This document shows positions 7,611 through 43,097 of a stretch of 64,000 nucleotides of DNA, piece after piece. The translations under genes were made by a program, and so were the position numbers. How positions within the stretch are numbered: the stretch's first letter is position 1; each line of letters begins with the position of its first letter. The stretch spans positions 34,507,737-34,571,736 of the forward strand of contig CP154954.1 in assembly GCA_039621445.1 (NCBI GenBank), read 5' to 3'. The DNA comes from Euglena gracilis. Its lineage: Eukaryota. The notes under the pieces were generated by a model. The model was not told the origin of the DNA. It did not search any database and worked only from the letters and a program-made list of their open reading frames with translations.

Positions 7611-7682
7611 CATACATGGTGGGGATCGAACCCACGACCTCACGGCTGTGAAGTATGCGTTGTACCACTGAACTACATGCAT
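7611..7682 (-). pseudogene. tRNA-like pseudogene (CAC at anticodon position)
   Basis: Minus strand ATGCATG-TAGTTCAGTGGTA...GTGGGTTCGATCCCCAC-CATGTAT; the anticodon stem is mispaired. Confidence 0.6.
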
Positions 7683-12349: not shown

Positions 12350-12374
12350 CTTTCTGAGTGTCTATTTTTTTTCG
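12350..12374 (+). other. Euglenid spliced-leader exon sequence at the 5' end of E1
   Basis: CTTTCTGAGTGTCTATTTTTTTTCG matches the Euglena SL as I recall it. It is not followed by a GT donor; ATG follows after 18 nt. Confidence 0.9.
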
Positions 12375-13089
12375 ATCTCCTCATAAACCGCCATGTCGGG
12401 GGCCGCGGCCCCAGAAGACCCGCCAGCCGTGCTGGAAGTGCCGCTGGACAACGTCATCCTCAACAAAAAATTGAATTCGGTGCTGGAGCAAGTGAGCCTG
12501 GTGGCTCAGAATATGGTGGTATTAGCAAGCAAAGTGGAAGAGCTGGCCGACAAGGTGGAGGAAGGACGACCGGGAAAAAGGAGACGACAAGAAGACGAAG
12601 CCTACGAGGAGTTCCTCAAAAAAAACACCAGAGCCGATACATCCCCCGCCACCTCCGACACCAGCCTGAGCAGCCCTTACCGCCCCCCTGGCTACAACAC
12701 ACACACACACACACACACACACCACACACTTTTAAATCCCCAGGGGAAGCATGGAAGGACTGCCCAGCAACAACAGCAGCCACAGCAGCAACAGCTGCAG
12801 CCCCAAATGGGGCAAATGGGCAGCCAAATGGGGGCCCAGATGGGCAGCCTCCTGGGGGGCCCTGTGGGGAACACCCCCACCATGACCGCCAGTGCAACAG
12901 CCAACCAAGGGCTGTAGCTCCCCACCGACCTGCTGCGACAGCTGCTGCTACAAATCATGTGGATGCTGCTTGGACATGTTCCAAATTTAAATTTAAATTC
13001 AAATGGCAGCCACATGTCCATTGCTACCGATGCCCCGCTCTTAATGGCAGCTGGACCCTCTGGACCCTCCCTCCCACCATCTCCTTCAT

Positions 13090-15437
13090 TTGTGCCCTGC
13101 CAAATCGAAGGGGGGGGGGGAGTGGAAGAGGGGGGGGGCAGAAGTTTTTGAAGTCACACCCAGGACTGGGCCAAGGCCCCCCCCCAAAAAATGCACCACA
13201 ACACCCCAAATCCAGAGGATTTTGGAAAAACTCAGGACAAGGTCCACTGAGGAAAAGAAAATGGTCACCGACCTGGTGGATCAAAAAAGGGCTGCACAAA
13301 AAAAGGAGCACACCTTAGCAGCCAGTTCCAAAGCCCCGGCCAACCTGCCGACAAACTCGATTTCAGCAGCAGACGATTGGTCTGTGATGTCTTCGACGGA
13401 CGCCTCCATCTGGGGGGAATGGACCGGGTCCAGAAAAAAATACAAAAAAGTCCTCGTGGACCACTGGCTGGAGGGAATCCATATCGCCGCTTCCCCCCTG
13501 CCCCCCCACCCCCCCGGTCGCACCTGGTCTGACCTAGCGGACGACGACGTCCAGCTGCTCCTGTATCCCCCCTGCGCGCAGCCCCAAGAAGGGGGGGGGA
13601 GGGCGGCCGGCTACCGCCCCTCGGGGGGGGCCGGCGCCACGGGCATACGACGGGGTGGCATCACGCCGACGGTCACAGTCGCCCCGGCCTCTCGAGGCAG
13701 CTCTGCCACAGGGATATCCTCTGCTGCGGCGATATCGAGGAGAACCCGGGGCCTCGCCCGGGGGGACCGGCGAGCCCATCCCCCCCCCCTGGCACCCGAC
13801 GACGTCTGGGAGGAGATCTACTGGACTGGCCAACACTGGCGGTGGCTACGTCTGCTCACCCCGGCAACCGCCGGCCCCTCGTCGTCGGGGACGGCAGCAC
13901 ACCTCGCGTCGGCATGGTCCGAATTTGCGAGATGCCTCTTGTGCTCTCAGCACGTCAACCTGTCGTCCCTCCAAGGCATGCAGTCCCATCAATGCCAGGC
14001 GGGTAGGCCCATGGGCAACATTTTCTCTCTCCCCTCCATAAGAGAAGACTCGTGGCGCTGGAGGCTACAGCACTTGGAGTCCCTCCCAAACGGCGAGTGG
14101 TGGCTGGTACACTGCCAAATGTGCGGATGGTCGACTGCGACCCTGTACCCAGCGCCCATAGTTGCCCACATGCAGATCTGCCAACCACCGTCTCTCTCTG
14201 ACGTCGATAGCGACCCGGAGGATGACGATGCCGACGACGATGACTCCACGCGTCCCAGACGGGGAGCGGCCGCTCTTGGGCCCAGCAGCCCGGCACCGGC
14301 ACCCCCCGGGGCCTCACCCCCACCCCACGTAGCTGCCTCCCCCAGAGACTCACAGGGAGCCCCGCGTGGGCGGCTCCTCACCTCCACACTTCGCCGGCAG
14401 GCCGCCGGCTGCCGCCGCCTGGGGGCTCCCCCGCGGGCTCGGAGCGGCAGGGGCGCAGACATCCTCACTGCGGGAGATGTGGAGAGCAACCCCGGCCCCA
14501 CGAGCTCCGGCCGGGCTTCATCCGTTCTCCCCCCCCTCGCACCAAGCGAAGACTTCATGCTGGACACCGAGTGGTTCCAGGCGGTGGTGCGGGCTCTGTC
14601 CCCCCATAACCCGCCCACCATCGACGCTTTCGCCGAGCAAAATAACACCCAACTGGACGCCTTCTGGTCATCAAGGGAGGATGCATTCCTCCAGAATTGG
14701 AACTTGCCAAACCCGCTGTGGTGCAACCCACCCTTCTCCCTGCTCCCCCGTGTTTTGGAACACGTCCTTCGATATGGGGGCAACATCATCCTCCTCGCAC
14801 CGGAGTGGTCCACCGCGCTGGCCGGCCTGCGGCGCCTCTCCTCGCATTCCGTGACCTTACCGCGATGCCCCATCTACCGGGCCCGGGGGACAGCGCTGCT
14901 GCCAGCCCCCACGTGGTCGACCACAGCCCTACGGATATGCCACACCGGCAGCGGCAGCCCATGCGGCGCCCGGCCCCCACCGGGTCCCCACCGGGGCGCT
15001 GACCACGGACGGCAGCTCTCGCACCACGCGCACTCCCCTTACCCCCTTGCGCCGCTCCTCTCCCCTGGCCAACAACGCCTCATCATAGAACGCCGCTCCA
15101 CTCATGGCGGCGAAGTCTTCCACCTAGGGGACTATGCAGGCTGGACATTCCTATTCCACCGGAACGCCCTGTGGGACATCCGCGGTCAGACCCCCTGCTG
15201 GTGCCCTCGCTGCGGCCTGTGGCAATGGCCTTGGGACTGCCCCACGTTGCTCCCTCTTCAGTTTGCCGCCCTTAGACCACCGCTCTTACGCCCGGCTTTT
15301 CGGCTGACCCCCACCCCCCACTCCCTCCTCGACGAGCCACGGGCCCCCCTGGATCTGGCAGCGGTAGCCAACTCACTGCCAAAAAACGGCCATCGTTGTC
15401 CGCGCGGGGCAGTCCTTTCATACGGGGGGCAAACCGC
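13090..15437 (+). CDS. E1 polyprotein N-terminal part: two C2HC-type Zn fingers, 2A peptide, DNA adenine methyltransferase
   Basis: CLLC..H.C and CQMC..H...C; GRGADILTAGDVESNPGP at 14446-14499; MTase motifs. A frameshift before ~15437 is needed to reach the second 2A. Confidence 0.75.
14548..14940 (+). CDS. N6-adenine DNA methyltransferase domain (phage Dam / DIRS-MT-like)
   Basis: PTIDAFAEQNN..F...EDAFLQNW...LWCNPPFSLL....IILLAPEW; catalytic NPPF at 14725-14736. Confidence 0.85.
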
Positions 15438-18400
15438 GGACGGGGTAGCCTCCTCACCTGTGGCGATGTGGAGGAGAACCCTGGGCCAGCCAAGCGCCCG
15501 GCCTCCGGGCCACCTCATGGCGCACCGGCTGCTGCGGATGCCCGGGACCACGACCACCTCTTTCTGGACCTGGCCCACCCGGAACTTGACGCCGCGGTAG
15601 TTATCGACAGCGCGGGGCAGGAGTCCAACCTCCGGGGACGGCCCGCGCACAACCTTGTCGTGGGCACTCCCCCATGCGACATCACCCACGTCCTCCAACA
15701 AAGAATCTCGACCCTTATTTACCTGCCCTCGGCCTGCCAGCAACCTGTCTTTGACACTTTGGCAGATGCCATCAACGCATACACGCACGCACCCTCGGAC
15801 GCTGCTCTATTCAGCGTCCTATCCTTCCCGAAACTCGTCCTCCGACCGGTGTCGACTACCAAACCACCGCCGGCAGCGGAGCTGGAGTCCATCCTGCTGA
15901 GGCGTACCAAACTGTTCCGCGAGGGGGACTACGGCACCCTTCTGACAGAGGCACTAAAGGACGCACAGGCTCGACACTCCGTCGTGGAAACCAGGGCGGA
16001 AAAACGCTCAAGAACGCAGCCGACCGCCCTCAGTGAGGCCATCACGAGACGTGTGCGCACCCTCACCTCGCAGAAGGGGCGTCCGCGAAGGCAGTCCAGC
16101 TACTGCTCTCTGAGGGCGCGCACCAACCGGATGATCCGGATGTCTGGGCTGCCCTGGAGAAGTTGCACCCCAGCGGCAGACAGGTGGACACCAACCGCCT
16201 CCCGCGACATGTTAAGCCCTTCCCTGAGAACCACATCCCGGAATGGGAGGACAGACTGAAGGAGGCCATCCGCCGTTTCCCACGGGGTTCCGCCGCAGGC
16301 CCGTCGGGCCTGCGGCCCAGCCACCTCCAAGACTGTCTTCGTAGGCCGGGCCGGGGAGCCAAGCTGATCACAGCCCTTGCGCGGCTGACCCAGTTCTGGA
16401 TTGACGGCCAGCTACCACCGCACCACGCCGCGGCCTGGTGCTGCGCGAATCTGACCCCACTCCGCAAGAAGGACAACGGGGTGCGGCCAGTGGCGGTTGG
16501 GGAGACCATCCGCCGCCTGGTAGGGAAAACGCTGCTCCGCTCGCCCCCACCCAGGTCGGGGTTGGGGTACGGAACGCCGCCGAGGCCGTTGCCCTGGGCA
16601 TGCAGCACCTCGTGCTTCAGCTGGGGGACACCTCACCCTGGGTTTCCCTCCAGGTGGACTACTCCAATGCTTTCAACACAGTTGACCGAGGGGCGATCCT
16701 CACAGAGGCCGAGACCCGTACACCCAGTCTGTTCAATTTCCTGAGGTTTGCATACAGCGGGCCCGTCCCCCTCTTCTGCGGGGGCCGCACCATCCTTTCC
16801 CAGAGGGGCACACACCAGGGCTGCCCTCTGGGCCCCATCGGGTTCACCCTGGCGCTGCAGCCGCTGCTGGACCAGATAACCAGGGACGGCCAGCTGCTAT
16901 GGAACAGCTGGTACCTGGACGACGGCCTCCTGGTCGGAACCCTCGACAGGATTGAACACTGCCTCCGTTTCCTGCTGCAAGAGTCCCACCGCATCGGCCT
17001 TGGCCTCAACCTACAGAAGTGCGTCATGTGGGGCCCGGGAGCGCGGAGTGCACCCAGTTGCGACAGATTGCAAGTGGTCCCTTGGTCACCAGGGGAAGGC
17101 ATTACCGTGCTCGGAATCCCAGTAGACCACCCCGCGTCCTCCGACACCACCAAGAAAGCGTGGGCGGATGCTGCCGCCAAGATCGAGAAGGCCTCATCTA
17201 CCATAACGTCCCTCACCGACGCCCAGGTGGCACATCACCTTCTGCGGAGCTGTCTAGACGGCTGCAAAGTGAACCACCTCCTACGCGCGTCCGACTCGTA
17301 TGGCAGCCAAGATAAGGTTACAGGTTGCTCGGAGGTCATCATGAACGCCTTCGAGGACATACTGGGCACGGCACTGAACCCACAACAGCGGACACAAGCG
17401 TCGCTGCCCCTATCCAGCGGGGGCTGCGGCCTGCGCGTCCCGTCCTGCACTCAGCCCGCAGCCAGGATCTCCTGCCTTGCAGACTTCTACTCAGACGGGG
17501 CCAGGCGCGTGGGTGTGCCCGACTACGCATCCGGCCTGCAGCTACCCCTGGTCGCGCCCGTCCTGGACGACCTCCGGGGCAGGCTAGGAGCCAACCATGC
17601 CACGGTCACCACCTTCCTCCACAACCCACAACGACTCGCCTCCGCGGACCAAGAACCCCGGAGGCAAAAGTGGTGGAACCACGAGCTGGGCAAAAAGGCG
17701 ATGGATGGCCTTGTGGACCAGGCCCGGCCCCGCGACCAGAACCGCCTCCTTGAACAAGCCACGGGGTTCGGACACGGGTGGATGGCGGCCACCCCTTCCA
17801 ACAACTCCCACACCACCTTCTCTAGCGAGGAGTACACCTTGGGACTGAAGTGGTGGTTAGGGCTTCCGGTGCTGGAGGACGTCAGCCAGCCGTGCACAGG
17901 GTGCGGCCAGCCTCTGGACCAGGAAGGCGACCACCTGCTTTGCTGCCGCAGGAACAACTTCTCAGCCCGGCACAACGCTGTTCAGGACGCTCTGTTTCTA
18001 ACCTTGTCCAACAGCGGTCACCGGGTGCAGAAGGAAGTTTCCCTGCCAACGGCCCGAGACAGTCACCTACGCCCGGCGGACCTCCTGCTGGACTGCTGGT
18101 CCGAGGGGAAGCCGACGGCGCTGGACGTTACCGTCTGCCACGGATGGCAAGCGGCAGAACACACAGCGACCCGCGAACGCTGGAGATCCTTCCTGAAGAG
18201 GAGGGAGGACGCCAAAAAGCAGAAATACAACGTGCCATGTCAGCAAGCAGGGTGGGGCTTCACACCTTTCGCCCTCGGGACATGGGGTGGCATGGGACCG
18301 GAAACGGCCAAGACACTGAGCAGAGTGGCCAAACGCGCATCGTCCTGGCAACAGGGCGCTGAGCGCGAAACCAAGCAAGCGGAAATCTACCAAAATGTGG

Positions 18401-18459
18401 CCATCGCCTTGCTCCGAGAAGTGTTCCACCTCTTACAACCCAAGCACGTCCTCCGTTAA
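15438..18459 (+). CDS. E1 2A + reverse transcriptase + CCHC + restriction-like endonuclease (two frameshifts, near 16070 and 16545)
   Basis: GRGSLLTCGDVEENPGP; GSAAGPSGLRP; RPVAVGETIRRL; DYSNAFN; QGCPLGP; WYLDD; CTGC..GDHLLCC..RHN; RPADLLL..LDVTV. Confidence 0.9.
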
Positions 18460-18842
18460 CCACGGGAGGAGCCACCCCAAAAAACAACAACACACACACA
18501 ACACAACCACACACCCACACCCACACACGCACACACACCCACACCCACACACACACACACGCACACCAACACACCACAACCATCCGCACGCCCTCCCGCC
18601 CGCGCCAAGCAGGCCGCCTCACCCCTACCGTCAGCCACCCCAGCCGTCAGCCACTCCAGCCGTCCCTCTGCGCCTTATATTGAAGATGGGCCTTGCCCGT
18701 TTTCCTCCTGCCCTGCCCTGCACCACCTGTATATACTTTTAACCTCCTCCGGACCTTCAAACCCAGTAGGCTGTGCCACTCGTCGGTGGATTCGGTTCGC
18801 CCCACCACCGCTATCCGGCTAAGTCGGCCCCTCCCAGCTCAA

Positions 18843-20726
18843 ACTACACGCCAGCTGGAGGAGGTTGTACATTTGGTCCTTGAAAAGGGACCACCCATTG
18901 GTGTTGACCTGAATACCAACAAATGCACCCTTTGGGGGCCAGCCTTCCAACCCGACCGTTTTCTCTTCCTGGAGGGGTTGCAACGCATCCCCGTAACTCC
19001 ATACATTCCTGGTTCCGGAATCAAGTCCCTCGGGGTTCCAATTTGCCATCCGGAGGACGGGACATTTGCCGAACGTGTGTGGTTTGGGCGGTGCGAAGAA
19101 GCTATGAAGGCGTGTTCAGCCTTGCAGAAGGTGCCTTCTGCGCACATCCACTTCACCATTCTAAGGCTGTGTCTGGACGCGTGCAAGGTTAACGACCTGT
19201 TGAGGACTACTCCAATTGGCCTTGCAACCATGCAGTGCACGCTGCTAAGCAAAACCCTGCGGAATACCGCCAGCATCATTGTCGGGCGGCCGCTGGAAGA
19301 GGACCAGTGGCGCCAGGCCACCTTGCCTGTCCGGTTGGGTGGGTTGGGCATCCGGGACCCTACCACGGAGCGCCCGATCGCCAGGTGGGCCGCCACACTT
19401 GACTTTCTTGTTCGCGGCGACCGCGTCCTCGACTTGCCACCCATCTGTGGGATGAACCCCCTACCTTCGGAATTTACCGCCCAGGTGGAGGCCATCAAGG
19501 GTCTATGTGAGCTCCCACCGATTGCAAAGGCCTTTGTTGAGGACCCAAAAAGTCCGGAGATGCTGCCTCAAGAAATGACGGCACGGAAATTCTGGGGACA
19601 ACAGTGTGCAAAAGCCCGACAGCAAGCTCTGTACAACTCACTCACGGGTAGCGATAAACTGAAAATGGCATGTCAGATGAAGCCACATGCTATGGCTTGG
19701 GCCTCCGTTACGCCGTCAGCCGCCACAAGGACGCTCATACCAACAAGGGAATTCCAGGCCCTGATGCAATGGTCCCTGGGTGCTCCGGTTGTTTCGCCTT
19801 CAGATGCCTGTCCCGGGTGCCCTCGGTGCCACAACCCCTTGGACGCAAGAGGCCATCACCTCGTTTGTTGCCACCGGAACAACATTGTTCGGCGACACGG
19901 GGCGGTGCAGTCCTACATCCTTGGGCTGGCCCAAAAGGCAGGTTTCCCGGCCAGAAGAGAGGAGAGTGCCCCTGATGGTTCCCGCCCGGGCGACGTATTT
20001 GTGATGCGATATGATGCAAACGGTCCGGCGGCAATCGATGTGACCGTTCGCCACCCCCTTGCACCTTCCCGCGTACGGCCAGGATTGGAAGACCTTGGTA
20101 AATGGCATGAGAGCCAGGAGGAAGACAAAATCAAAAAAGTATGGAGACGGTTGTAAGCGCAGAGGGTGGACGTTCATCCCCTTTGTCCTCGATTGCTACG
20201 GAGGAATGGGGGAGGCAGCGCTTGCCTTTGTTGGAAACTGTGTTCACTTGCTTGCGGGACAACATGACGCATGGGAGAGGCGAGCAGCGGAGGCAAACTG
20301 CTGGCAGGGCCTCAGCATGGCCCTTGCCAGAGAACTGGCGAAACAGCTCGTGTGGGGCCAATGCCCTGACGACCTCAACGAAGGAGGTGGCATGGACACT
20401 CACCACCCATACAGCACATGAGCTACCCCTTCGGGCTCCACTATCCCGAAGCAACCCCTCCGCCTCCGGCGGTGCTTCCTGAACTAGCGGAGGCCTGGAA
20501 ACGGCCCGCCACGCACAGCCAAGGGGGCAGCGAATCGGGACCATGCCATGATATATAAGGAATGCCCCCTGCAACAACCAAGAACCAATGCAGCACGTCG
20601 GAGCTGCAACGACGCCCCCGAGGAGCCGCAGGGCGTGAAAGACAGCTGAAGCCGGAATCACCGGCCCACCCGTCATCAACACCCAGACCTTAAACGGCAC
20701 CGAGCCCTGCCACCTCCCCATTGCCT
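18843..20726 (+). mobile_element. E2a: 5'-truncated near-identical copy of the 3' part of E2
   Basis: Matches 22875-24766 apart from a 9-bp deletion (ACAAGTGTA), one extra A near 20135 and a few substitutions. Confidence 0.9.
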
Positions 20727-23700
20727 CCGCCGGGCACCAGCCATTACAATTTCTTCGCAAAAATCACCCGGAACAGCCCACTCAGAGTCCCCTCAGGGGG
20801 GTTTTTGAGGTCGCCGAGTCCGAATATCCGCTCACACCGACGTGGTGGAGCCGCCAGAGCCGGCATTCGTCAAGACCGTCCTGGTAGAGAGCGAAGCCTC
20901 AAGCTCCTCGACCCCTGCGGAGAATGGGCATTGGCGGATTCTCCAAGCCACGCAAAGCGGTCAAGCACAGGGTTTTTGAGGTCGCTGAGTTCAATTATCC
21001 TCTCGGATGGACGTGGTGGAGCCGGCAGAACGGGCATTTGTCAAATCCTTGGACCTTTTGGGAAGCGGAACGGCCTTCCCCGCAAGCTCCATGCCTCCGC
21101 TCACCCTCGGACCGGCAGAGGGGACAGCCTGCTGACATCAGGGGATGTCGAATCAAACCCAGGCCCGGGTCCACCAACCTTCCCTGAAGCGAACAACACC
21201 TTGGTGCCAATGCTGTATGACTTTGAACAAAACGCAGAGGGTACAATTGGCTTCCTCATGGCGACAACCATGCCTCCGTTGCAGCCCCCGCCGCAAGTAT
21301 CCCCTTCCTCACAAGATGCCAGGGAGCTTCAAGACCTGCTGCAACGGCTCATCAGCCGGCCACCGCTGGAGGCCACCCTCCCCGCAACAAATAGCCCAGG
21401 GCCCACAAGAGGACCCAGTGCGTTGGATGGGGTGGACGACGTTGAAATGGGGGTTCAATATCTACCCGGCATGAAAACTGGCACTGCCCTTCAATCCCCG
21501 TGCCCGGATCTCTCCCCGTCGTGGATGGAAATATCCTCGGATCCAAGGGGCACTGTTTCCACCATACCAAAGTGAGCCCTTCCCGCGGTCTGTGACGTGT
21601 ACTCCTGCCTTCTCCGGGCGTTCAACGAGAGGCCCACCTGGGAAACATTACATGGCCTGTGGGCTTTCCCCAAGGCTGTGTTGGCACCTTTGGGAAAGGG
21701 TGGACGCGGCCATTGGGCCCGGTTGGGAAGGGTCATCCGCGGCAGAGCGGAAGCTTATCTAAAACGAACGGTGGCAGACAGTTGGAAGGACTCTGCCCGC
21801 TTACCCCAAATGGGTCAACCTGTTCGCACCAGGGGCCAAGCCCGACGTGAGCAAGAAGTGCAAGAAGAAGCATTCGTACGCCGCCTTGAACGTTTGGTGA
21901 GCAAGGGTGCCGTTGGCAAGGCATGCCAGGTCCTGACTTCGGACGGCGTGCAAGATGACAAACACCCCGTTGTGCGCCAACGGTTGAACGATCTTCACCC
22001 GGCTGAGGAACCACCTGGCCGGGGCCCCACGGATAAACGGGTTCTGTTTCCGCCACCTGGAGACGAGAACGAGAGGAGGGACAGGCTTTCCATGGTCCGC
22101 AAAGCAGTGTTCAGTTTCGGAAAAGAATCGGCAGCAGGGCCATCGGGCCTAAAGCCGGACCACATTAAGGACATGCTTAGCAGGGAAGCTGGGGGACAGG
22201 CCGAGACACTGCTTGAGGGCCTCACGACCTTCGTCTTCTGCTGCATCAACACGGGATGGCCCGCCGGTGTGGCTGAAATCCTCACATCGGCACGCCTCAC
22301 GGCGCTGCGAAAGGTCAAACCGGCCACGACAGTGGATGACGCTGGGAACCTCACACCCAATGGGCAGGATCCCGCACAAGAAGGGACTCGGCCCATTGCT
22401 TCCGGAGAATGCTTGCGCCGACTGGTGGGCAAGGTGCTGATGCGCCAACCTGCCGTGCAAAAGTTTACCCAAGATGGGATGCCCGGGCAGTTTGGGGTGG
22501 GTTGTCCTGACGCCTGTGGCCTGATCGGCATGGGCCTCCAACACCTCGTGACCAGCCTCCATCATGGAGGCTCTCGTGACTGGGGAGTCTTGCAATTGGA
22601 CTTCAGGAACGCATTCAACTGGATCCGGAGGGATAACCTTCTCGAAGCAGCACGAGAACGATGTCCAGAAATGGTGACGTGGCTGGAGACCTGTTATGCA
22701 GAACACTCGAGCCTCTTTTTGAGCGACACATCCCTCCGAAGCCAGTCGGGGGTTCAGCAAGGCGATCCTTGTGGACCGGCTGCCTTTGCCATGGCAATTC
22801 AGAGTCTGGTGGAGGAAATCCATGGCGTTTGCGGATGGCAGGCCTGGTACCTGGACGATGCCCACATCATGGGGACTACACGCCAGCTGGAGGAGGTTGT
22901 ACATTTGGTCCTTGAAAAGGGACCACCCATTGGTGTTGACCTGAATATCAACAAATGCACCCTTTGGGGGCCAGCCTTCCAACCCGACCGTTTTCTCTTC
23001 CTGGAGGGGACAAGTGTATTGCAACGCATCCCCGTAACTCCATACATTCCTGGTTCCGGAATAAAGTCCCTCGGGGTTCCAATTTGCCATCCGGAGGACG
23101 GGACATTTGCCGAACGTGTGTGGTTTGGGCGGTGCGAAGAAGCTATGAAGGCGTGTTCAGCCTTGCAGAAGGTGCCTTCTGCGCACATCCAGTTCACCAT
23201 TCTAAGGCTGTGTCTGGACGCGTGCAAGGTTAACGACCTGTTGAGGACTACTCCAATTGGCCTTGCAACCATGCAGTGCACGCTGCTGAGCAAAACCCTG
23301 CGGAATACCGCCAGCATCATTGTCGGGCGGCCGCTGGAAGAGGACCAGTGGCGCCAGGCCACCTTGCCTGTCCGGTTGGGTGGGTTGGGCATCCGGGACC
23401 CTACCACGGAGCGCCCGATCGCCAGGTGGGCCGCCACACTTGACTTTCTTGTTCGCGGCGACCGCGTCCTCGACTTGCCACCCATCTGTGGGATGAACCC
23501 CCTACCTTCGGAATTTACCGCCCAGGTGGAGGCCATCAAGGGTCTATGTGAGCTCCCACCGATTGCAAAGGCCTTTGTTGAGGACCCAAAAAGTCCGGAG
23601 ATGCTGCCTCAAGAAATGACGGCACAGAAATTCTGGGGACAACAGTGTGCAAAGGCCCGACAGCAAGCTCTGTACAACTCACTCACGGGTAGCGATAAAC

Positions 23701-31700: not shown

Positions 31701-31802
31701 ATTGCGCGAGAGATCGCGCGACAAGTAATCTGGGGACGGTATGCAGGCAACGACACAGATCCAGAAGTAACCAACACCATACACCAGCCGTATTGTCTGT
31801 AA
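28680..31802 (+). CDS. E3 reverse transcriptase + CCHC + RLE (uninterrupted 1040 codons)
   Basis: SSPGPSGLRP; DFSNAFN; GVQQGDP; YLDD; CPRC..NHLVCC..RRH; RPGDV..VDITV. Confidence 0.93.
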   Translation: MCAPQGQGLIENFVPSSPQGQEQECQNGRRPQPPVVPAPAQSSMNADTLQVTPFSQPCPPMQPSWEEISQDTRGTLVHIPRGALRNVGLAFCSTLSRFVSKPGWETLHALWCFPKAVLAPLKRSGKSHWAAVGRKITERANAYLNRSTEDSWDETRQIRDAQNPKKRTRSQTKNFDAESQERLCNRVQSLVSHGAVSKACRMLTSDGIQDADDPLILERLAALHPPEPQPGRQNLPPDFPRLEFDLSEDATRERLIEIRKAVMSFPKESSPGPSGLRPDHLKDMLSDPLGTQSEQLLTILDQFVRTCLTNGIHNSAAWIFAGARLTPLRKPCNPSENLDELGNTNPIPDPKKDGTRPIAAGECLRRLVGKYLMRHPKIRDRLKELQPLQCGVGVQGACELIAMGLQQEVNHLHMQQDSTWALLQVDFSNAFNCVKRKTVLAEVAKRCPEAYVWFESCYAEHSPLFCGSSHLRSASGVQQGDPCGPAGFALALQSLVESLQDVVPLQLCYLDDGHILGTLPQLHAAITEIQRQGTLLGIHLNAKKCRMWGPAATEANRAEMPPNSPLRAVPIVNYSPNSGIRALGISVCHPQSGGFAGEVWAERATGVQKACRALLNLPQAHIQFCLLRTCLDACKVNDLMRATELGQANDACALLTKEIRNTMSNIVGSPIDDNQWAQATLPVRHGGLGIRDPSLERLPARISGIVTFVSNGRRTLGLADRGVPKDTAECLSSANSILEGTPPTQTWAADVSLLNEAQSPHIQQKWWGECFAKQRQKVLSSNLHGQDAVRFASQQQPHAMAWASVTPSSGLKTLVASAEFKGFLKWSLGAPVCPPTGSTCPRCTKPMDNLGNHLVCCSSNGITRRHGAIQDFVFQLAHDAGFTAKKEQGGPERTRPGDVLISRLDANGPGAVDITVRHTAAPYRPLRDTAELTEWYERQEKEKHSKYDATCGRMGWTCIPFVVDCYGGLGQEALTLMSTLMKLLLGQQDAWSKGKTEADTWQLLSITIAREIARQVIWGRYAGNDTDPEVTNTIHQPYCL

Positions 31803-32401
31803 AGAAGACCACGACGACCCCTAGACACAGAACAAACAATTGTCCTTAAACCATCCACAACTCGTCAAAAAAGTAAACAACAGTACCCAACCATCAGCAA
31901 CCTGTGTCTCACATTGGCAAGAGAAGTGGCCCGCCAGCTGACTTGAGGAACAGTGGCGGAGCCATCTGGAACGGTGGATCCCACCACCCATTGCCCATAT
32001 GAAACGGAGTGAGCAATTTGACCACAGGGCCGAAGACGCCATGACACACCAACCGTACGCATAACCAACCACGAGACTAATTTAACCAAAAAACAAGCAA
32101 ATCACACCTTGCAACGAATGGACCAAGTCTACAAAGACGTCCAAACCCTTACCTCACCGAAAACAGAGCCTTCCCTGCGCCAACTCCCCAAAACCAAAAC
32201 TTGTCGCAGCCACAACCTCAACACCCAACAGTCCCCATGGCCGTTCCATTGAACCTTCCCTGCCGCTGTACACTTTCCTCTCACACTCGCTATCCCCCCT
32301 CCGAACTGTGCCCTTCACCGCCGTTCTACTTCACCCTCGCCTCTCCCCCCTCCCACCTTGAGAACTTGCTATGTGCATTACTCTCACCCGCACAGGACTT
32401 C

Positions 32402-35400
32402 GGATTTTGAGTGTTCGAGGGTGCGAGGCTATACACAACGAAGGAGTGTGGGTCGAGCGGTGAGAGCAAGGGCAAAGCCCAAGCAGAGAGTGATGGGTGG
32501 AGAGGTGTGAAGTGTGCATGCGCGGTGTTCTCCGGCTTTGTGGCTCCGGAAGGCTGGTGCAACGGGGAGCATTTTCACCTTACGAGTTCAGGATCATACG
32601 ATCTGTGGCTCTTTCGGCCAACCGCAGCTGCCGTGCAACTGCACGGGCCAGTGTGATGGCCAAGTTTTCGGTCAATTCCTGAAATTTTCGTTGTTTGGCT
32701 GTTCCAGAACATGAATTGGTCGCGAGGCGTAGGACATCGCGTAGGAGTTTGGAGGCTGCCGGTCCTGTGCACCCCCAGGGGTTAAATGCAGCCCCAATGT
32801 ACTCCCACTGGTGGCGGGCGCACCGTTCTTCAGCTTGTGTTCTCTTGTGCATTTCAGCGTCTGGTAGAGTACGCTGAACTCGGGTCAAGTTCAGAGGCCA
32901 CCGTGATGGGGCCAGCGGGTGTTCAATGGTGACATCAACAGCGAGATGCTTCCCTTTGTTCCACCCCAGGAGGAGGAGATCAGCGTCACGGGTGCCACCC
33001 TCGCATCCCTGTTCTTTGCGAAGAGTGATGCCTGCGCGTTGGCACAGGTCAAAAATGGCGTAACGAACACAGTTGTGCCTTTCTGTTATGCCATTCCTTC
33101 TGCAAGCCAGGAGGTGATCGCCAAATGGATCGACTGCCTCAGCACACAGGGGGCACAGAAGCATGTCCGTTGTTGGGATCAGGGGTAAGCCAGTCCAGAA
33201 GCGTAGAAGCAGTCTGTATTCGTCCGGAGCTAGGACGGTATTCACCGACCTGGATGGTAAGACGGTCATCCAATTTTGAAGGAAGGCAGAGGACTGGCAA
33301 CGAAGCCTGGCAATGTCCCGAAGAGGTGCACCGTCCTCCAAAGTTGCCACGCGAACGGCGTGGAAACGTTCGGCCCACCACGATTGAGTGGAGTGATCTG
33401 GGGTGGAACAGGCCAAGGAAGAAGGGTTGGCGATCCAGGAAGCCAATGGTTCGCTGTGCGGGCCCAAGGTGTCACGAGCCAGTTGGGCGACGGGGATGGT
33501 ATCTGGTAGCGGGAGCATGCGCCAGGGCGGAGGGATATTGAAGCCGGGCGCTCGTTGGGAAAAACCCACGCAAGCAGCCAAACGGGCAGCTGGTCTTTCC
33601 AACTGGGGGTCTGTGATGCCCCACCCTGTCTTATTGCACGGCAAGGTGATTTGTTTCCAATGCAAGGTAGACTGGGGTGCCCCCACAATGTCACAGGCAG
33701 CACTCCGGATGGAGTCGGAGATCACTTGCACACTGTGCGTCCCGGAGGAAATGTTTGTCTGACGCAGAAGGTGCGTGACGCGGCAGCCATCCAGAAAGTT
33801 GCGCAGCAAACAATGTTGGAGTTGGGGATCCGGCAGTTGTTGGAGGCGCGAGATGGTAGCTTGAAATTTTTCGGATGCCTTGGCCCACGTGGTGTCAGAA
33901 AAGGTGCAGTCACCAGGATAGTCGCAAGGTACCCCTAGGCACAGGATGCCACTGCCCGGTCCCCATGGGGTGACCGGGAAGTTTTGTGCAAGGTGGTCGG
34001 GAGGCAGGATCTGAAGAGCCGGGGGTTTCGGAGTGGCACAGGGTACACCTGGTCCCCATAAGGCACACTTGGAGGGGTTGAGGTGGAGCCCAACGCTGCC
34101 AAGTGCCGTGGCCAGAGAAGCCGTGAAAGGCAGAACATCAACGGCAGGGCCGATGACAGTACCGTCGTCCAAGTACCACGCCTGCCACACCGTGTTGGGC
34201 AAATTGGCCGAAGCCTGTTGCAGCGCCTGATGGAGACCCAAGGCAAAGGCAATGGGCCCACATGTGTCCCCTTGATGGACACCGGTCCTGCTGTGACACA
34301 GCACGTCACCCTGGCAAAGAAGTGGGACGTCTTCTCCGTAGGAGAATCGGAGCCAGTTGTAAAGGGACGGGCAGAGGTCCAGGGATGCCTGCAGGAACGC
34401 GGATCGATCAATGGTGTTGAAGGCGTTGGAAACGTCGGCCTGGAAAACCACCCAATCGCCATCCACTGGCAGAGACGCCAGTGCGGCCTGTACCGCCAAC
34501 CCGACTGTCTCCGCACCGTAGCGCACCCCCACTCCCAATTGCTGCGGGAACAGCTGAGACGTTTCCGCTTTGCACTGCGGGTGTCGCAACAGCATTTTCC
34601 CAATGAAGCGCCGCAGGCAATCCCCCACGGCGATCGGCCGTAGACCGCCACCCTTTTTGGTAAGTGGGATCAGGTTTGACGTACCAAAAAAGATCGAGGC
34701 TTTTGCTGGCAAAGAGCCCTCCCAGGCCTTCTGAGCCAGGGACCCCAAGGCTATGTGTAGCGGGCCTGTCCCGGCCTCACGGTCCAACAAGTCCCGAAGG
34801 TCTTGTGGACGGAGACCAGATGGGCCGGGGGCGCTGCCACGGGGGAAAGAGGCTGCAGCTTCTTGCACAATTGAAGACCAGTTGAAGTCAGTAGTTTGTG
34901 GAGAATTGCCTGCCCCAGGCAGCGGCAAACTGGCTCGTAATGGAGACCCCTGTGGATGGAGCGACAGGAGCTTCTGCATCACTGCTGGATCCCCGGGCGA
35001 TGCCAGGGGCAAAGAGGTGAGAGCGTCCACGGCCTTGCCGAGGGCCCCTTCTTCAACGAGTCCGCGCACCCGGTCCATAAGACCACGTGCCACAGAGTCA
35101 GAAGTAGAGCCAGAGGGGTTGGCGCGGGTGGTGGGCCGCTTTCGCCGTCTGTCAGAGCGAAGCGGATCAAACAGAGCGGCAAACTCTCCTGCGTGCCACT
35201 GTGCCAGTCTCTTTTCCAGGAGGCAATGCAATGTGTGTTGATGGGAAGACGAGGTTTTGGGAGGGGCACCAAGAACGAGTTTCGGAAAAATGAACAGGCG
35301 GTGTAGAGCTTCCCAGGTTTGGGCTTGGAGAAAGGTCTGAATGGAGGATGCAAGGGCGTCACAAATTGCGTGACGACTTGGCAGTGGGATACGGCGAAGA

Positions 35401-35585: not shown

Positions 35586-36685
35586 TTTTTTTTTTGATTG
35601 GGAATGCAACCTGCCGAACGGTGGTGGGGCGAACCGAATCCACCGACCAGTGGCACAGCCTACTGGATTTGAAGAGTTCAGGGGAGTAAGGCTATGTACA
35701 GAGGCAACAGTCTGTGCACGCTGGTGAAGGGAGGGAAGGTAAAAGGGGCGAGCAAAGAGAACAGTATAAGGCGCGAGGTGAGGCCGCTGTTGATCAGCTT
35801 CCGGAGTCCTTCGTCCACGTGAGTCAGAGTGGTTGGGCAAATGGTTCCCATACTCCCCGGTACGGGAAAATTCCGCATGGCCGTTTCTGGCCTCCCGCCG
35901 CATTTCGGCGGGACGAGGACCGCTTTTTCGGGTCCGCCGCCCTCGAAAACCCCCCTTGTGGACATCTGAGCGGGCTCCACCGGGTCTTCTGAATGAAGCA
36001 ACTGTGATGGCCGATACCGGAGGGCAGTAGTTCCCGTGTACCACGGACTCCAACAAAGTACTCAACAAGGGTCGAAACCTCCAAAGAGCATTTTGAGTGC
36101 AACAGCAATTTTTGCAGTCTTTTCGCAAGTGGATATGGCGGACTTCTGATCATAATGGCGGGCCCTTCGCCCAACACCCTTCCGACCGGGAGGGAATGAC
36201 ATGGCACTAATCCGGGAATCGTCGTGGGAGTCTTTGGGGCAAAAAGTCCACATGTTATGTTTTGTTCGCTTCTCATGCCTTCGGTGATGATGATGATGTC
36301 GATGGCTGGTCCGGGGCTGACCTCCCGGGCTGCTGCTCCAGGGCTGATCTCCTGGGCTCGTTGGGGGTTGGGGGGCTCACCCCTTTGGTTGGCATGCTGG
36401 GGGTTGCAAGGCTTGTTCTCTTGCCCCCGGTGCCGTCGAACGCTGCGGGGCTGTGTCTCCCGCTGCTCTGGAGCTGTGGGGCTTGGCATCCCACAGGAAT
36501 CAAGCTGGTTTGTCAAGTAGAGAACTGGTCACGATCAACAGTTGCAAAGGAGTGGAAGTAGTCGATGACTTCAGAAAGCAATATCTTGAAACTTCAGATA
36601 CCCAAGGTAAATAATAATGCTTGACCCCGACCCCGGGGCTTTCAAGACAAGTTATGCGGAAGACGAAAAAAAAATAGACACTCAA
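35586..36685 (-). mobile_element. ~1.1-kb non-autonomous retroelement: SL 5' end, no RT, E2-type 3' UTR, module A, A10 tract
   Basis: SL at 36664-36685; 35604-35838 is nearly the reverse complement of 24767-25002; T10 at 35586-35595. Confidence 0.75.
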
Positions 36686-38433: not shown

Positions 38434-41400
38434 TTATTTAGTTTGAGTAGGGAGAGTGAGAGCCTCGGGAGGAGTTGTCGCCATTCGTGGATGGTTCAGT
38501 GTAGAAGCACCACACGAGTTGTTTGATATCTCTTTGGCCAGTGTCAGGGAGAGGCCTTGCCAGACCTCTGCTTCGGCTTGGCGTTGCTGCCAACCTTCCC
38601 GCTGCCCTAGCAGGGCTTTCAGGAGGGTGGACATCAGTGTGCGGCCTTCCTGCCCCAGTCCCCCGAAACAGTCAAGCACAAAGGCATTAAGCCGCCATCC
38701 CCGCCTTGCACAGGCAGCATCATATTTCCGGTGTTTTTCGGCTTCTTGCCTCTCCTGCCAAGCTTGCAGTTGGGTGGAACGACCTAGAGGGTTGCTTGGA
38801 ATTTGGGTGTGGCGAATGGTGACGTCGATTGCCACGGGTCCGTCACTGTCCAGTCGAGGAATAAAAACATCACCGGGGCGGGTGTTGTCATCAGCCCGTT
38901 GCTCTTTCTTGGCTTGGAATCCACATCGTTGCGCAAGGGAAGTGAGAAAGTCTTGGACAGCCGTGTGCCGCTTGTAAAGGTTGTTGAATTTGCAGCACAA
39001 TAGGTGATGACCCGTAACATCCACATTCCCTTGGCATTTGGGAAAGAGCAAGCCAGTGGTGGAGGCAACGTCGCTCAATGGCATACCAATGTTCCACCGA
39101 AGGAGACAGCGGAATTCGGCTGAAGGCAAGAGGGTGCGTGTGGCAGTGCTCGGTGTGGCTGCAGCCCACGCCATCGCATGGGGCTGGCATTGGCTCGCGA
39201 ACCGGACTTGATCCTGTGGCGGCAATTGTCGGGTAAGTAGCGCTTGTCGTGCAGTGGAAAATTGGCCGTTCCACCATTTCTGAGATGTGTGGGGGCTCTG
39301 AGCGTTTTGGATTAGAGACAAGTCCTCCAGCCATTGTGGAAGGGGAGCTGTGGTTCCGAGGGTGGTGGAAGCGTCTCGCAAACAATCTAGGGTGTCTGCA
39401 GGATCACGGGGGAACACTGATGGGATTCCCAGTGTCTCCGGCCCCCAGCGAAAGTAATCAATGATGCCGGCAATTCGAGCGGGCAAGCGGATGTGGCTGG
39501 GGTCTGAAAGGCCAAGTCCTCCCAAGCGAATTGGTAGGCAGATTTGCTCCCATTGTTGTGGTGTGCACGGGCCGCCAAGCAATCCTTCAAAACAGTTCCG
39601 CAGGATTGTGCTGAAAGCTGCACACTCCGGGCGCCCCTGGGTGTATGAGGTTGCTCGTAGAAGGTCGTTTACCTTACCAGAGGTGAGGCAATAACGTAAA
39701 ATAGTGAATTGGAGGTGCGCCTGGGGTAGCTTGGAAAGAGATTGGCACGCCTCCATAACACCGTTCACACGTTTCCTCCAAATCTGACGGGCAAATGCAT
39801 CGCCTTCTGGATGGCACAGTGGGACCCCGAGAACTTTGAGGCCTGAGTCCTTCAGAAACGGCACAATGGGTACTTGGCGAAGTGGGCTGTCGCCCGGGAT
39901 TCCATCTGGCAGTGTGCCTCCGCAACTGGAGGTGAAGGCCGGGCCCCACAGATTGCACTTCGCAAGGTTCACCACCAATCCCCGTTTGCCTGCTTCATGG
40001 ATCAGTGTGGAGAGTGCTGTGTGAAGCTGCATCGGCGAACCCAAGAGATGGCCATCGTCCAAGTACCACCCCTGCCATTCGACTTTGGTGGACAGCTCCT
40101 CCAGGACATCCTGCAGTCCCCAAGCAAATAGCGCTGGGCCACACGGGTCTCCTTGTTGGGCGCCTCTGGCGGAAGTGAGCATTTGCTTCCCACAAAAAAG
40201 TGTGGAATGTTGGCTGTAGCAGCTCTCGAGCCAGGGCATCGCAGGGGGACATCGGCGACGGACACTGTCCAAAGCGGACCCGCGGAGGAGGCTGTTGAAC
40301 GCGTTGCTCAAGTCTATTTGCAGAAGGCCCCACCGATCCTCCTTCTTGCGGAAGAGGTCATCGGTCATCTGTTGCTGGCCAATTGCGGTGAGGCTACAAG
40401 CATTGCGGACCCCTACACCGCTTTGCAAGGGACAGAGGTCTTTGAGGGTCTGTGTGATGGCTTGGTGGTGCATGAGTACCTTGGCCACAAGGCGTCTGAG
40501 GCACTCCCCTGCGGCGATTGGTCGGGTTCCCTCTCCAGCTGCAGCTGCGCCATTACCGTTGTTTGGGGAGGGGGCGGCCTTTCGGAGCGGTGTGAGTGTG
40601 GCAGATGCAAGAATTGGTGCCATGTGAGGATGGACACCCTTTGAAATGCAGTCGCAAATGAAGAGATCCAAGGTTTCCAACAGGTCTTCCGCCCGGGAGC
40701 CTGGCAGGTCAGCGAGCATGCTCCGCAGATGGTCTGGCCGCAGGCCGGAGGGGCCTGCGGCGGAGTCCTTCGGGAAAGAGCAGATAGCCTTGCGGAGGGC
40801 CACCGTCCTTTCGCGGAGAGATTCCGCATCCCGGGGGAACTGCAATTTGTGGGAGGGATCCCAAGGACCAAAGCCGGGAGGTTCCTCATGAGGATGGAGG
40901 GCCTGAAGTTGCGCCATCACATTTGGGTCAGAAGAATCACGAACCCCATCAGAGGTCAGCACGCGGCAGGCTTTCGAGATTGCCCCATGTCCCACGAGAG
41001 TGCTCACACGATTCACCATTCGCTCCGTATCCAAAGCTTCTTCCCTTGCAGAAGCGGACCTAGTTCGCGGGGCTGGAGGCGGTAAGTCAGGCAACACAGA
41101 CTCCTCCCAACTATCAACGACCGGCCGTTGGAGGTACAACTTGGCGCGCTCAGCGACCTTGCGGCCGACCTGTGCCCAATGGGCCTTTCCACCGCGCTTC
41201 AGTGGGCAAAGCACTGCTTTTGGAAATGCCCAAAGATGGTGCAGGGTCCGCCATCAAGGATTTGCGTTAAAATTCCGGAGGAGGGTGATGAAGGTGCACG
41301 TGACCTGCACAACGGCACCACGAGGGATGTGGACCAGCGTCGGCCGGGTGTCCAAACCAATTTCTTCAAAAGAAGGCGACAGGGCTGCCCCGTCATCTGG

Positions 41401-41895
41401 GAATGCACTCGGGGAAACAGAGCAAGATACTCGGCGTTGTGTGCTGTCCTGTGAATTAGGCAACATGGCCACGTCCCCTTGGGACTGCGAGACAGGTTGG
41501 CCAGGGTTCCTTACTCCGGAACCGGCAGAAGGTATGGTACATGCTTGTTGAGGTTGTTGAGCGGCCGTCGATGAAGAGACAGCAGCTGGCTGAATGGACG
41601 GTTGCAATGGGGTTGGTGGTTGTGGTGACAGTAAAGTGGCGGGGTGGACTGTCCCCAGCAAGGGCAGGAAGGAATCAGCCTGGTGGCCGAGCAGCCATTG
41701 ACCACCGGCATCAAGGCCGGAGGCAGTCGGTGGGAAAGGGAGTTGGGGGAAAACCGGAAATGCGTTCATCGGAAACCAGGAGCCAGGGGCCGCGCCTGTT
41801 TGCGAGCATTGGGAGGCTGCCGACATTTCTACATCGTCGTTTGGGCCTGGGTTGGCCTCCACATCCCCGCATGTCAGGGCTTCTTCTCCCCTCCC
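38434..41895 (-). CDS. E5 2A + reverse transcriptase + RLE (frameshifted near 41214-41260)
   Basis: SAAGPSGLRP; DLSNAFN; GAQQGDP; WYLDD; LPIRLGGLG; RPGDV..IDVTI. The first Cys of the CCHC knuckle appears mutated (FPKC). Confidence 0.88.
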
Positions 41896-42564
41896 CGAAG
41901 GGACGTGTTCCACAACGAACGAGCCTGGAAGGGTGAGGTTTTCTGGCGCGACTTTTGCAGGCCAAGAAATTGGTGGAATACCTTGGCGTTGGGTGACTGG
42001 GACGTGAGGGCGTGGGCACAGAGTGTTTGGGGTTTGCCTTTTCAAGCCTTGGCTGACTGTTTGTGGGGGACTTTTCAGGCCAAAGTGGTGCAAAATGGTG
42101 TGAGGGTGGGGCCTTTGCAGGCCCAGGGAATTTACACACTGGGGGAAAATGGTGTCAATGGCAGGTTGGGGTGGCAAAGTGTTTTTGGTTGTCCAAACAA
42201 AACTGTTGCAAACATTGGAGCGGAAAGTAACACTCAATGGTTGGCAGATGGGGGGCCCTTGCAGGCCCAGGGCTTTTGCAAGCCACTGGGACAAAATGCT
42301 GCAGGTTGAAATGGTGTCACAGGGGGGCCATTGCTGTCCCAAGGAATTTGCACACATGGGAAAAAAGGTGTAAATGGGAGGTTGGGGTGGCAAAATGTTT
42401 TTGGATGTCCAGTCAAAACTGCTGCAGAATGTGTCACAGCTTTTGGTGTAACATGTGCTGTGAAAACTCAGGGTTTGCCATTGCAGTTGGACAGAAGATT
42501 GGGATGCAATGCAGAAAACAGAAGTGAACACAATGGAGCTGAAAGTAGCACTTAATGGTTGGCA

Positions 42565-42682
42565 GATGGGGGGCCTTTGCAGGCCCAATGGGGGGGGCCT
42601 TTGCAGGCCCAATGGGGGCCTTTGCAGGCCCAATGGGGGGGGCCTTTGCAGGCCCAATGGGGGGGGCCTTTGCAGGTCCAAT
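42565..42682 (-). repeat. Coding minisatellite, ~24-bp unit x5, in the E5 N-terminal region
   Basis: GGGGGCCTTTGCAGGCCCAATGGG repeats (GLQRPPPL in one frame). Confidence 0.85.
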
Positions 42683-43097
42683 AGGGACCAGCAGGGCTGA
42701 GAAGCCCAGAGAGTCAGCAGCATGTCGAACTTCGGGAGCTGTTGCTGTTGTTGGAGCTGCTGCTGTCGAACTTCTGGAGTTGCAGCTAAGGGCTGAAAAG
42801 CCCACTTCACCGGGTTCGTGTTCCGGAACTTTTCTCCGCCTTGGTCTGGTCTCTGAGCTTGCACTTGTCCTTGGACTTGACACCAGAACTTCTTGAACAG
42901 TACTTGTTGGAACTTGGAACTGCACCAGGGACTTGGACTTCACAAGTACTTGCAGCTTGAACCCCTCCAGGGGCTTTCACTTCTCGGCCATGTGATATGT
43001 CGAAAAAAAATAGACACTCAGAAACACTCAAAATCCAGTAGGCTGTGCCACTGGTCGGTGGATTCGGTTCGCCCCACCAAACCCGCGCCCAAGTGAA

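Follow-up and report, generated by a model that had tools for sequence, protein, structure and literature searches.

A 64,000-nucleotide stretch of Euglena gracilis DNA (GenBank assembly GCA_039621445.1, contig CP154954.1, forward-strand positions 34,507,737 to 34,571,736; hereafter the window) holds, between 3.9 and 43.1 kb, a nest of at least nine copies of retrotransposons without long terminal repeats (non-LTR retrotransposons). Four of these copies begin with the spliced leader (SL), the exon that trans-splicing adds to most Euglena mRNAs, and this leader was carried by the RNA that served as template for reverse transcription. Our overall explanation, to which we assign a probability of about 0.7, is that of a nest of R2-class elements whose template RNA bore the leader, likely through trans-splicing, and which insert into leader-like targets.

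Matches to a 16-nt leader core (GAGTGTCTATTTTTTT) were found at four places in the window, 12356-12371 and 25018-25033 on the forward strand and 36668-36683 and 43004-43019 on the reverse strand. All four were exact, though up to two mismatches were allowed; the chance expectation is 0.06, and none of 100 shuffles reached four matches. The leaders and the elements that they open, here named A1, B, C1 and D, are the following.

12350-12374, forward strand: leader of A1, CTTTCTGAGTGTCTATTTTTTTTCG, nt 2-26 of the 26-nt SL, DNA-encoded at the 5′ end of the element
25014-25035, forward strand: leader of B, SL nt 4-26 with seven T in place of eight, preceded by the filler CTA
36685-36664, reverse strand: leader of C1, a hybrid, TTGAGTGTCTAT followed by nine T and CG
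43023-43001, reverse strand: leader of D, SL nt 4-26

The 26-nt leader of the window is identical to the E. gracilis SL as printed in PMC6242988, and PMC5654406 lists a primer that shares its core. The bases that follow ...TCG in the four leaders are ATCT, TCTG, TCTT and ACAT, and none of the four has the GT of an SL-RNA intron. An ATG comes 18 nt after the leader in A1 (12393), 14 nt after it in B (25050) and 9 nt after it in D (42991); there is no ATG near the leader of C1, and the frame opened by the ATG of D stops after four codons, so this copy is damaged. An original prediction made on this DNA had held that intact 5′ ends start with the SL exon, that the motif is the euglenid SL, that no intron GT follows, and that three copies have an ATG within 9-18 nt; all four statements were borne out. 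Further partial leader pieces, at 25003-25015 on the forward strand and at 37865-37852 and 43033-43024 on the reverse strand, had not been part of it.

As a control, a 20-nt leader core was searched in metagenome contigs, which gave 13 matches at 12 loci. Eight of the 13 continue with GTAT and an intron with an Sm-like AATTTTTGG, and are therefore true SL-RNA genes; a further two start with the first base of their contig, as an mRNA would, and the remaining three are other cases. At one metagenome locus (L004) the leader (ACACCTTCTGAG...) lies at 424-443 on the reverse strand, with more than 400 nt of sequence upstream and with ATCAAGC...ATG next to it in place of the intron; this may be another DNA-level leader-tagged retrocopy, of an environmental euglenid.

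Two of the copies carry their leader inside a target-site duplication. In A1 this is a 10-bp duplication (TCCCAGCTCA) of a site unrelated to the SL, with an equally good match in 11 of 5000 random pairs of 26-nt windows; in D the leader starts after the complete left copy of an 11-bp duplication (ATTTTGAGTGT), a length that 5 of 5000 random pairs reach. Because the leader lies inside both duplications, it was on the RNA that was reverse-transcribed and did not derive from an SL gene, in agreement with the earlier proposal that the copies were made from leader-bearing RNA. When the four 5′ ends were aligned, 17 leader columns were invariant and the flanks diverged at once on both sides. The 3′ end of the leader is complete in all four copies, its 5′ start lies at nt 2, 4, 4 and ~7, and the distance from the leader to a CATAA/CATAT motif shared by the 5′ untranslated regions (UTRs) is 1, 4, 7 or 8 nt across copies. 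These starts, aligned ends and spacings fit a run-off a few bases short of the capped end, not an insertion into an SL gene.

The surroundings of the leaders point the same way as the earlier claim that the copies sit outside an SL gene array. Upstream of the leaders the flanks differ, being either the 3′ end of another element or unrelated DNA; no SL gene or SL intron was found in the window, where Rfam reported four tRNAs only, and SL promoter or intron sequence flanking most copies, as expected of SL-gene targets, was likewise not seen. Of the contigs of a DNA run, 10 that span the T-run of the B leader (25026) have the canonical T8 where the B copy has T7, from which it follows that other genomic copies of the B family also carry the leader.

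The elements belong to the restriction-like-endonuclease (RLE) class of non-LTR retrotransposons, of the R2/CRE/NeSL type. Pfam detected the reverse transcriptase (RT) domain RVT_1 in 6 of 15 long open reading frames (ORFs), with E-values from 1e-10 to 5e-14. We aligned five RTs of the window with seven database relatives, and behind the RT this alignment contains a nearly invariant set of residues, C-x2-C...H-x3-C, RH, E, RP(G/A)D, D(V)T and K (alignment columns C840, C843, H853, C857, R865-H866, E887, R895-P896-D898, D913 and K943), which by its pattern is a CCHC finger followed by a PD-(D/E)xK-like signature of a putative restriction-like endonuclease. Such a C-terminal signature is typical of early-branching non-LTR retrotransposons. 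Compared with solved structures, the profile of the alignment scored best against R2 proteins (9nl3_A, 2e-23; 9dou_A, 3.5e-23), with LINE-1 ORF2p far behind (4e-7), and its endonuclease part aligned weakly, at 10.5 bits, to the endonuclease region of R2. A single RT searched by phmmer against the solved structures gave no hits, relatives being found by the profile only. The window thus combines a non-LTR RT and the CCHC plus PD-(D/E)xK-like motif with the other features of the class: no LTRs in the self-BLAST comparison of the window, at least six 5′-truncated copies, and target-site duplications of 10-12 bp for the copies A1, D and C3. Neither an integrase nor a tyrosine recombinase was found by Pfam in 15 + 9 frames. 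A Penelope-like or DIRS-like nature, suspected from the tandem and inverted layout and from a match to Dam, was ruled out by the R2-type endonuclease motif and by the lack of a GIY-YIG domain or tyrosine recombinase in Pfam.

RT-related DNA was found by tblastn at nine places from 3.9 to 41.4 kb, and pairwise RT identity separates at least three divergent families: B, D and A3 are 43-50% identical to one another; C2, C3 and X are 85-97% identical, with about 31% to the B/D/A3 group; and A1 is 31-35% identical to all others. Scans of IMG/VR for the leader and for relatives of the RT gave no match, and a search of the ESM Atlas returned RVT_1 clusters only. The copies and their parts are arranged as follows.

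4866-3875, reverse strand: W, a 5′-truncated RT/RLE fragment directly downstream of X, 24-30% identical to the B RT (tblastn, E 8e-27)
~12313-4896, reverse strand: X, an older C-family copy, ~83% identical to C2, its 3′ motif cut at 4893
12339-12348, forward strand: left target-site duplication of A1, TCCCAGCTCA, a 10-bp match with 18832-18841
12350-18831, forward strand: A1, with SL, ORF1 (12393-12914), three 2A-like sites and a Dam-like NPPF module
16037-18456, forward strand: RT/RLE of A1, frameshifted
18763-18803, forward strand: 3′ motif of A1, followed by a 21-nt tail
18832-18841, forward strand: right target-site duplication of A1, copy of TCCCAGCTCA
18843-20726, forward strand: A2, a 5′-truncated partial copy without SL, 98.7% identical to 22875-24766 of A3
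20727-25002, forward strand: A3, 5′-truncated and without SL, RT/RLE at 21597-24461
24939-24979, forward strand: 3′ motif at the end of A3, whose tail ends in GCATT
25000-25010, forward strand: left flanking repeat of B, ATTTTGAGTGT, an 11-bp direct repeat with 32404-32414
25014-32403, forward strand: B, with SL, ORF1 from the ATG at 25050, and middle ORFs with four 2A-like sites (26512-28704)
28680-31802, forward strand: RT/RLE of B, with a 3′ UTR that lacks the shared motif
32404-32414, forward strand: right flanking repeat of B, antisense of the C2 3′ UTR (GGATTTTGAGTGTTCGAGG)
~35560-32402, reverse strand: C2, a 5′-truncated C-family RT/RLE whose 3′ UTR is cut by B just before the 41-nt motif
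36685-35586, reverse strand: C1, short and non-autonomous, ~1.1 kb, no RT, its 5′ part related to the 5′ region of D
35839-35603, reverse strand: 3′ end of C1, last 237 nt 99.6% identical to the end of A3, with A10 at 35595-35586
37851-36686, reverse strand: C3, a 5′-truncated C-family copy, 96.8% identical to C2, 3′ motif at 36754-36714
37863-37852 and 36685-36674, reverse strand: 12-bp duplication of C3, TTGAGTGTCTAT
43023-37867, reverse strand: D, with SL, ATG at 42991, one 2A-like site and RT/RLE at 38434-41214
41254-41256, reverse strand: in-frame stop in D, whose own 3′ UTR ends in A10 (37875-37866)
43034-43024 (left) and 37866-37856 (right), reverse strand: 11-bp duplication of D, ATTTTGAGTGT
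43024-43082, forward strand: 3′-end fragment of the C family, ~59 nt, head-to-head with D, its antisense having supplied the target of D
18727-18810, 24904-24986, 35701-35619, 36787-36707 and 43024-43082: copies of the shared 3′ domain
13533-16256 (A1), 26512-28704 (B) and 41257-42939 (D): regions of the 2A-like sites

The pieces of X are interrupted by a tRNA cluster (5658-7682). Neither X (12299-12313) nor C2 (35547-35560) has a leader, and both stop at nearly one internal position, just downstream of where the last 2A site lies in their relatives; possible reasons are a segmental duplication, a hot spot of truncation or a sub-element with the RT only and no leader. The pair A2/A3 has the order b-a-b-c, with 22875-24766 repeated upstream of 20727 and joined at internal positions, which is a rearrangement or a template switch and is not explained by insertion at a target site.

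The junctions of the copies indicate where they were inserted. A leader-like octamer, TTGAGTGT, occurs eight times in the window against 1.59 expected, and none of 100 shuffles reached eight. Four of the eight sites stand directly behind the 3′ end of an element (A3, B, D and C3), which amounts to four of the six readable 3′ junctions, and the octamer comes either from the leader of a resident copy or from a leader-like antisense stretch of the C-family 3′ UTR. We infer that the 3′ junctions may reflect a nicking specificity for leader-like sequence of the form (T)TTGAGTGT. C3 is flanked by its 12-bp duplication (8 of 5000 random pairs reach 12), hence it inserted into the leader of C1. Removal in silico of C3 and then of D left one site, in which antisense C-family 3′ UTR (...CCTACTGGATTTTGAGTGT) runs straight into CTATTTTTTTTTCG and the body of C1; from this restored site it follows that the C1 leader is a hybrid, joined within 7 nt (TGAGTGT) common to the leader and the antisense UTR. 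The 3′ end of B abuts antisense C2 sequence, and on either side of B stands the 11-mer that also flanks D (a match of 11 was reached by 9 of 5000 random pairs). Other copies in the genome show the same joints: in the DNA run at least two contigs join the shared 3′ end and a private tail to 32408, the same antisense-UTR site, and at least four join a 3′ end to 25014 in the leader, one of them completing the full leader start. Several insertions, then, lie in leader-like DNA and have 10-12-bp duplications, though they are not in SL genes. Leader-directed insertion would explain the head-to-tail chains, new copies having landed in the leaders of old ones, and insertion into antisense 3′ UTRs would explain the tail-to-tail and head-to-head pairs. 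One further candidate for a leader, the A-run after C1 read as a degenerate antisense leader common to the X locus, was rejected, as the duplication of A1 shows that the X locus was leaderless before A1.

At their 3′ ends several of the copies share a 41-nt motif, which has five matches with at most one mismatch (in A1, A3, C1, C3 and the fragment at 43024-43082) against none expected. It sits in a conserved 3′ domain of ~100 nt (TGTATATAGCC...41-nt motif...CCCCACCACCG) that is almost identical across families with an RT identity of only ~30%. The domain ends with ...CCACCG (24988), immediately after which 49 contigs of the DNA run part from one another, and private tails of 16-21 nt follow it. 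D ends in A10, and B has neither the 41-nt motif nor an A-run. The bin with the 3′ motif and the leader was ~10 times deeper in the DNA contigs than the element body. Rfam returned nothing for 24840-25060, either at gathering thresholds or at E-values up to 10, so the motif matches no known RNA family. The predicted fold of the domain has -27 kcal/mol and a z-score of -1.96, and with 10 of 200 shuffles folding equally well it carries no strong claim of structure; the five copies are too alike for covariation. The domain is possibly an RT-binding site, a promoter for the downstream copy or the outcome of a recent exchange.

The polyproteins contain in-frame 2A-like sites of the form D(V/I)ExNPGP (GDVEENPGP, GDIEENPGP, GDVESNPGP, GDIESNPGP, GDVEANPGP and variants): three in A1, four in B (two canonical and two variant, NPGS and QTQPGP), one in D, and three in a public protein, P0122. 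By their motifs these sites are predicted to divide the polyprotein through ribosome skipping. A Dam-like adenine-methyltransferase module lies between two 2A sites upstream of the RT; in A1 it has the NPPF motif and falls within 13045-15597 (frame residues ~523-566). The Pfam Dam score stays below the cut-off of 28.1 bits, at 26.9 in A1 and 22.6 in P0122. P0122 has 2000 amino acids in a single open frame on a 6591-nt contig and is ~51% identical to the B RT; its order is three 2A-like sites, the Dam-like NPPF module (residues 634-676), RT and endonuclease, and this predicted order represents the intact plan of the elements. An intact element would accordingly encode one long polyprotein, to be cut at the 2A-like sites into an N-terminal protein, one or two middle modules and an RT-endonuclease, one middle module in one family being the Dam-like methyltransferase.

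From these data we propose a life cycle. The copied RNA carries the 26-nt SL of the host at its 5′ end, joined directly to a 5′ UTR of 9-18 nt and the first ATG, and the most likely source of this leader would be ordinary SL trans-splicing of the element transcript. Reverse transcription at the nicked target would run to 1-3 nt from the capped end; as the cDNA stops this short of the cap, a full-length copy starts at SL nt 2-4 and contains the leader through nt 26 inside the duplication. The junctions suggest a nick immediately upstream of (T)TTGAGTGT for the families B, D, A3 and C, with new copies landing in the leaders or 3′ UTRs of residents and giving head-to-tail and inverted arrays. The antisense-SL end of the cDNA may then pair with the target and seal the 5′ junction, as the hybrid leader of C1 suggests. 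That a few source copies keep an acceptor, and that the leader is renewed by trans-splicing, has in our view slightly better than an even chance. More tentatively, and with the odds leaning against it, we suggest that the leader serves both as a cap, which makes the RNA of a promoterless element translatable, and as a homology arm that guides integration. If so, the endonuclease would nick DNA that resembles the leader, and at this site the cDNA would pair through its antisense-leader end; because each full-length insertion plants a new target, its own leader, the family would home into itself and build arrays. Homing into SL-RNA genes would also be possible, with transcription from the SL promoter then yielding an 'SL + element' RNA directly, and such elements would be a free-living intermediate between SL-gene-bound SLACS/CRE and dispersed LINEs.

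Expression of the B family is weakly hinted at by the contigs of a metatranscriptome run: 37 pieces, 27 of which have ≥95% identity, are spread over 23 of the 30 bins of B; a second run, guessed to be RNA, placed 85 contig pieces on B.

A number of observations weigh against the proposed cycle. No master copy with a polypyrimidine-AG acceptor and no unspliced precursor was seen within the window, and there is no AG between leader and ATG in A1, B or D, for which reason trans-splicing could not restore the same 5′ end to read-through RNA of a leader-bearing copy. Tandem relic leaders of the dinoflagellate type were found in none of the four copies. All RT copies in the window have stops or frameshifts. 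The duplicates are 97-99.6% alike and the copies thus young, so that a perfect leader in each is weak evidence alone. As to the targets, A1 and C1 do not lie at TTGAGTGT sites, C1 has no duplication (the best match, of 5 bp, was reached by 1404 of 5000 random pairs), and the left flank of B is the tail of A3, not the rest of the antisense UTR, so that only a further event, be it a deletion or a later insertion, would account for its 11-bp repeat. The A1|A2 and A2|A3 junctions join internal positions without a piece of leader and do not fit a leader-target model, and the leaderless ends of X and C2 could be a genuine leaderless 5′ end instead of a truncation. All four runs that we used consist of contigs, which show neither the starts of RNAs nor their strand or levels; stretches that no contig covers carry no meaning, and the RNA libraries may contain DNA.

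The original prediction had named two alternatives, fresh trans-splicing in each cycle and a captured exon, and the evidence fits both. In the second, which we consider rather unlikely, the leader would be inherited with the element, and the RNA would come either from master copies that had entered SL-RNA genes by way of leader homology or from the leader and 5′ UTR acting as an internal promoter. SLACS is reportedly transcribed as 'SL + element' from the SL-RNA promoter. Pr77, an internal promoter in trypanosomatid L1Tc, is a precedent for the other route (PMC1874656). The missing AG acceptors and relic leaders are in keeping with such an inheritance, the T-runs of 7, 8, 8 and 9 could be inherited variants, and the preference for leader-like sites together with the C1 hybrid means that homology-guided joining can rebuild 'SL + body'. 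Against this, families with no more than 31-50% RT identity, and with 5′ UTRs that are unlike from the first base after the leader, have an identical core, and the leaders start at nt 2-7, where transcription from the copy's own first base would erode the leader in each cycle. The lack of an SL gene or SL intron in the window also speaks against an inherited leader, and all eight true SL genes of the metagenome control are uninterrupted, which, as they come from other samples, is no real test.

Quite unlikely, in our judgement, is that the chains and short leader pieces are chimeric cDNAs made by an RT that jumped from the 5′ end of one RNA to another RNA in one event, and not insertions nested in leader-like targets, the repeats not being target-site duplications. 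R2-type enzymes do jump between templates, the internal, leaderless A1|A2 and A2|A3 junctions would suit such jumps, and so would the 3-nt filler of B and its left flank, which is unfit for a simple target model. The leader pieces, however, read TTTTGAGTGT and not the canonical TTTCTGAGTGT, hence they fit the antisense C-family UTR and cannot be copies of leader RNA. The sequence that the 3′ end of B abuts is antisense UTR, that is, opposite-strand DNA and not an RNA 5′ end; the nested 11- and 12-bp duplications rebuild one consistent pre-insertion site for C1, D and C3; and contigs from elsewhere in the genome have 3′ ends joined to this antisense site.

We regard it as very improbable that the leaders are remnants of SL-RNA genes hit by elements, a pure target-site origin as in CRE1, SLACS and CZAR. 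The endonuclease class often targets SL exons (PMC4640811) and C3 did insert into a leader, but that leader belonged to C1 and not to an SL gene, no leader is followed by an intron, the leaders of A1 and D lie inside the duplications, and the four upstream flanks resemble neither one another nor the ACAC/ACAT-TTTC context in which true SL genes lie. An assembly artefact, with leader-rich reads mis-joined to repeats, might be suspected in a region so repetitive and with the motif and leader bin so deep, but is hardly credible given that four junctions in three families place the leader-body boundary exactly at the last leader base, that the duplications are coherent, and that 10 independent DNA-run contigs cover the B leader.

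The R2-class nest with its leader-bearing template RNA can be set beside several known systems. Host rRNA sequence can be present at the 5′ end of R2 RNA and assist in forming the 5′ junction, and by analogy the leader could play this part here, with the difference that the host sequence is a trans-spliced leader where that of R2 is co-transcribed target. The Euglena elements further differ from the R2 class in having several 2A-like sites, in the Dam-like module of one family, and in a 3′ domain common to families of such low RT identity. Their likeness to R2, R4, NeSL/Utopia, CRE and HERO lies in the RT with CCHC and PD-(D/E)xK endonuclease, the lack of LTRs, the 5′ truncation, the short target-site duplications and a tendency to sequence-specific targets (PMC4640811). 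Spliced leader exons are the targets of SL-specific elements (PMC4640811). Compared at the level of the class, CRE1/CRE2, SLACS and CZAR of trypanosomatids and NeSL-1 of nematodes belong with the Euglena elements to one broad endonuclease class and, like them, are linked to the SL; here the link consists of C3 inside a leader and of four 3′ junctions that abut the leader-like octamer. CRE, SLACS, CZAR and NeSL-1 occupy a fixed position within SL-RNA genes, with both gene halves flanking them. Insertion inside an SL-RNA gene was looked for in the window and not found; in contrast to the SL-gene-specific elements, the leader here is a component of the element, and where a leader was hit it was that of another element.

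In dinoflagellate SL-tagged retrogenes, a DNA-encoded 5′ leader marks retroposed trans-spliced mRNA (PMC3942190, PMC12014239), and A1 and D show the same signature, a leader joined directly to the body and inside the duplication. The dinoflagellate retrogenes are host genes mobilised in trans, often with tandem relic leaders, whereas in Euglena the retrotransposons carry the tag themselves, with one leader per copy, and the leader resembles the insertion site. A preprint (10.64898/2026.05.21.726589) describes E. gracilis retroelements with Dam-like domains, some with LINE-like RTs, and A1 and P0122 fit this description of DAM-encoding retroelements. The preprint calls them DAM-LTR/DIRS-like and possibly chimeric, and the term 'spliced leader' does not occur in its main text; the copies in the window, in contrast, have no LTR, tyrosine recombinase or integrase. 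Peptides of the 2A type are present in trypanosome Ingi/L1Tc and in APE-type non-LTR elements (PMC3708506), and the D(V/I)ExNPGP motifs within retrotransposon polyproteins are common to these elements and those of Euglena, which have up to four sites each. At the level of abstracts we found no report of 2A-like sites in the restriction-like-endonuclease class, and in the literature searched, mostly outside subscription journals, no account of Euglena retrotransposons that carry the leader.

Full-length retrotransposition leaves its own label in the copies, the DNA-encoded leader, through which insertions, their ages and their source RNAs can be traced genome-wide. If the leader guides integration, SL-gene targeting would be joined with the tagging of retrocopies by trans-splicing, and a mobile element could do without a promoter of its own where most mRNAs are trans-spliced. 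The predicted multi-2A polyprotein with its Dam-like module would be a compact natural example of 2A use outside viruses. The families are extremely abundant, a single 7.9-kb copy having drawn 9002 contig pieces from one DNA run, and their life cycle therefore bears on the large, repetitive genomes of euglenids.

The nest is accompanied by other features. Four tRNA genes were reported by Rfam at gathering thresholds within 5658-7682, namely Val-TAC, Ile-AAT and Ile-TAT on the forward strand and Val-CAC on the reverse strand, and there are local duplications at this cluster (5660-6127). Next to the nest lie satellite arrays at 45787-47211 (163-bp unit, 8.8 copies, 93% matches) and 48501-49422 (71 bp, 13 copies), and a third, G-run-rich array occupies 49902-54037 with ~88 copies of a unit of ~46 bp. 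Units related to these satellites were also found at 44840-45200, 47610-48120 and 63598-63881.

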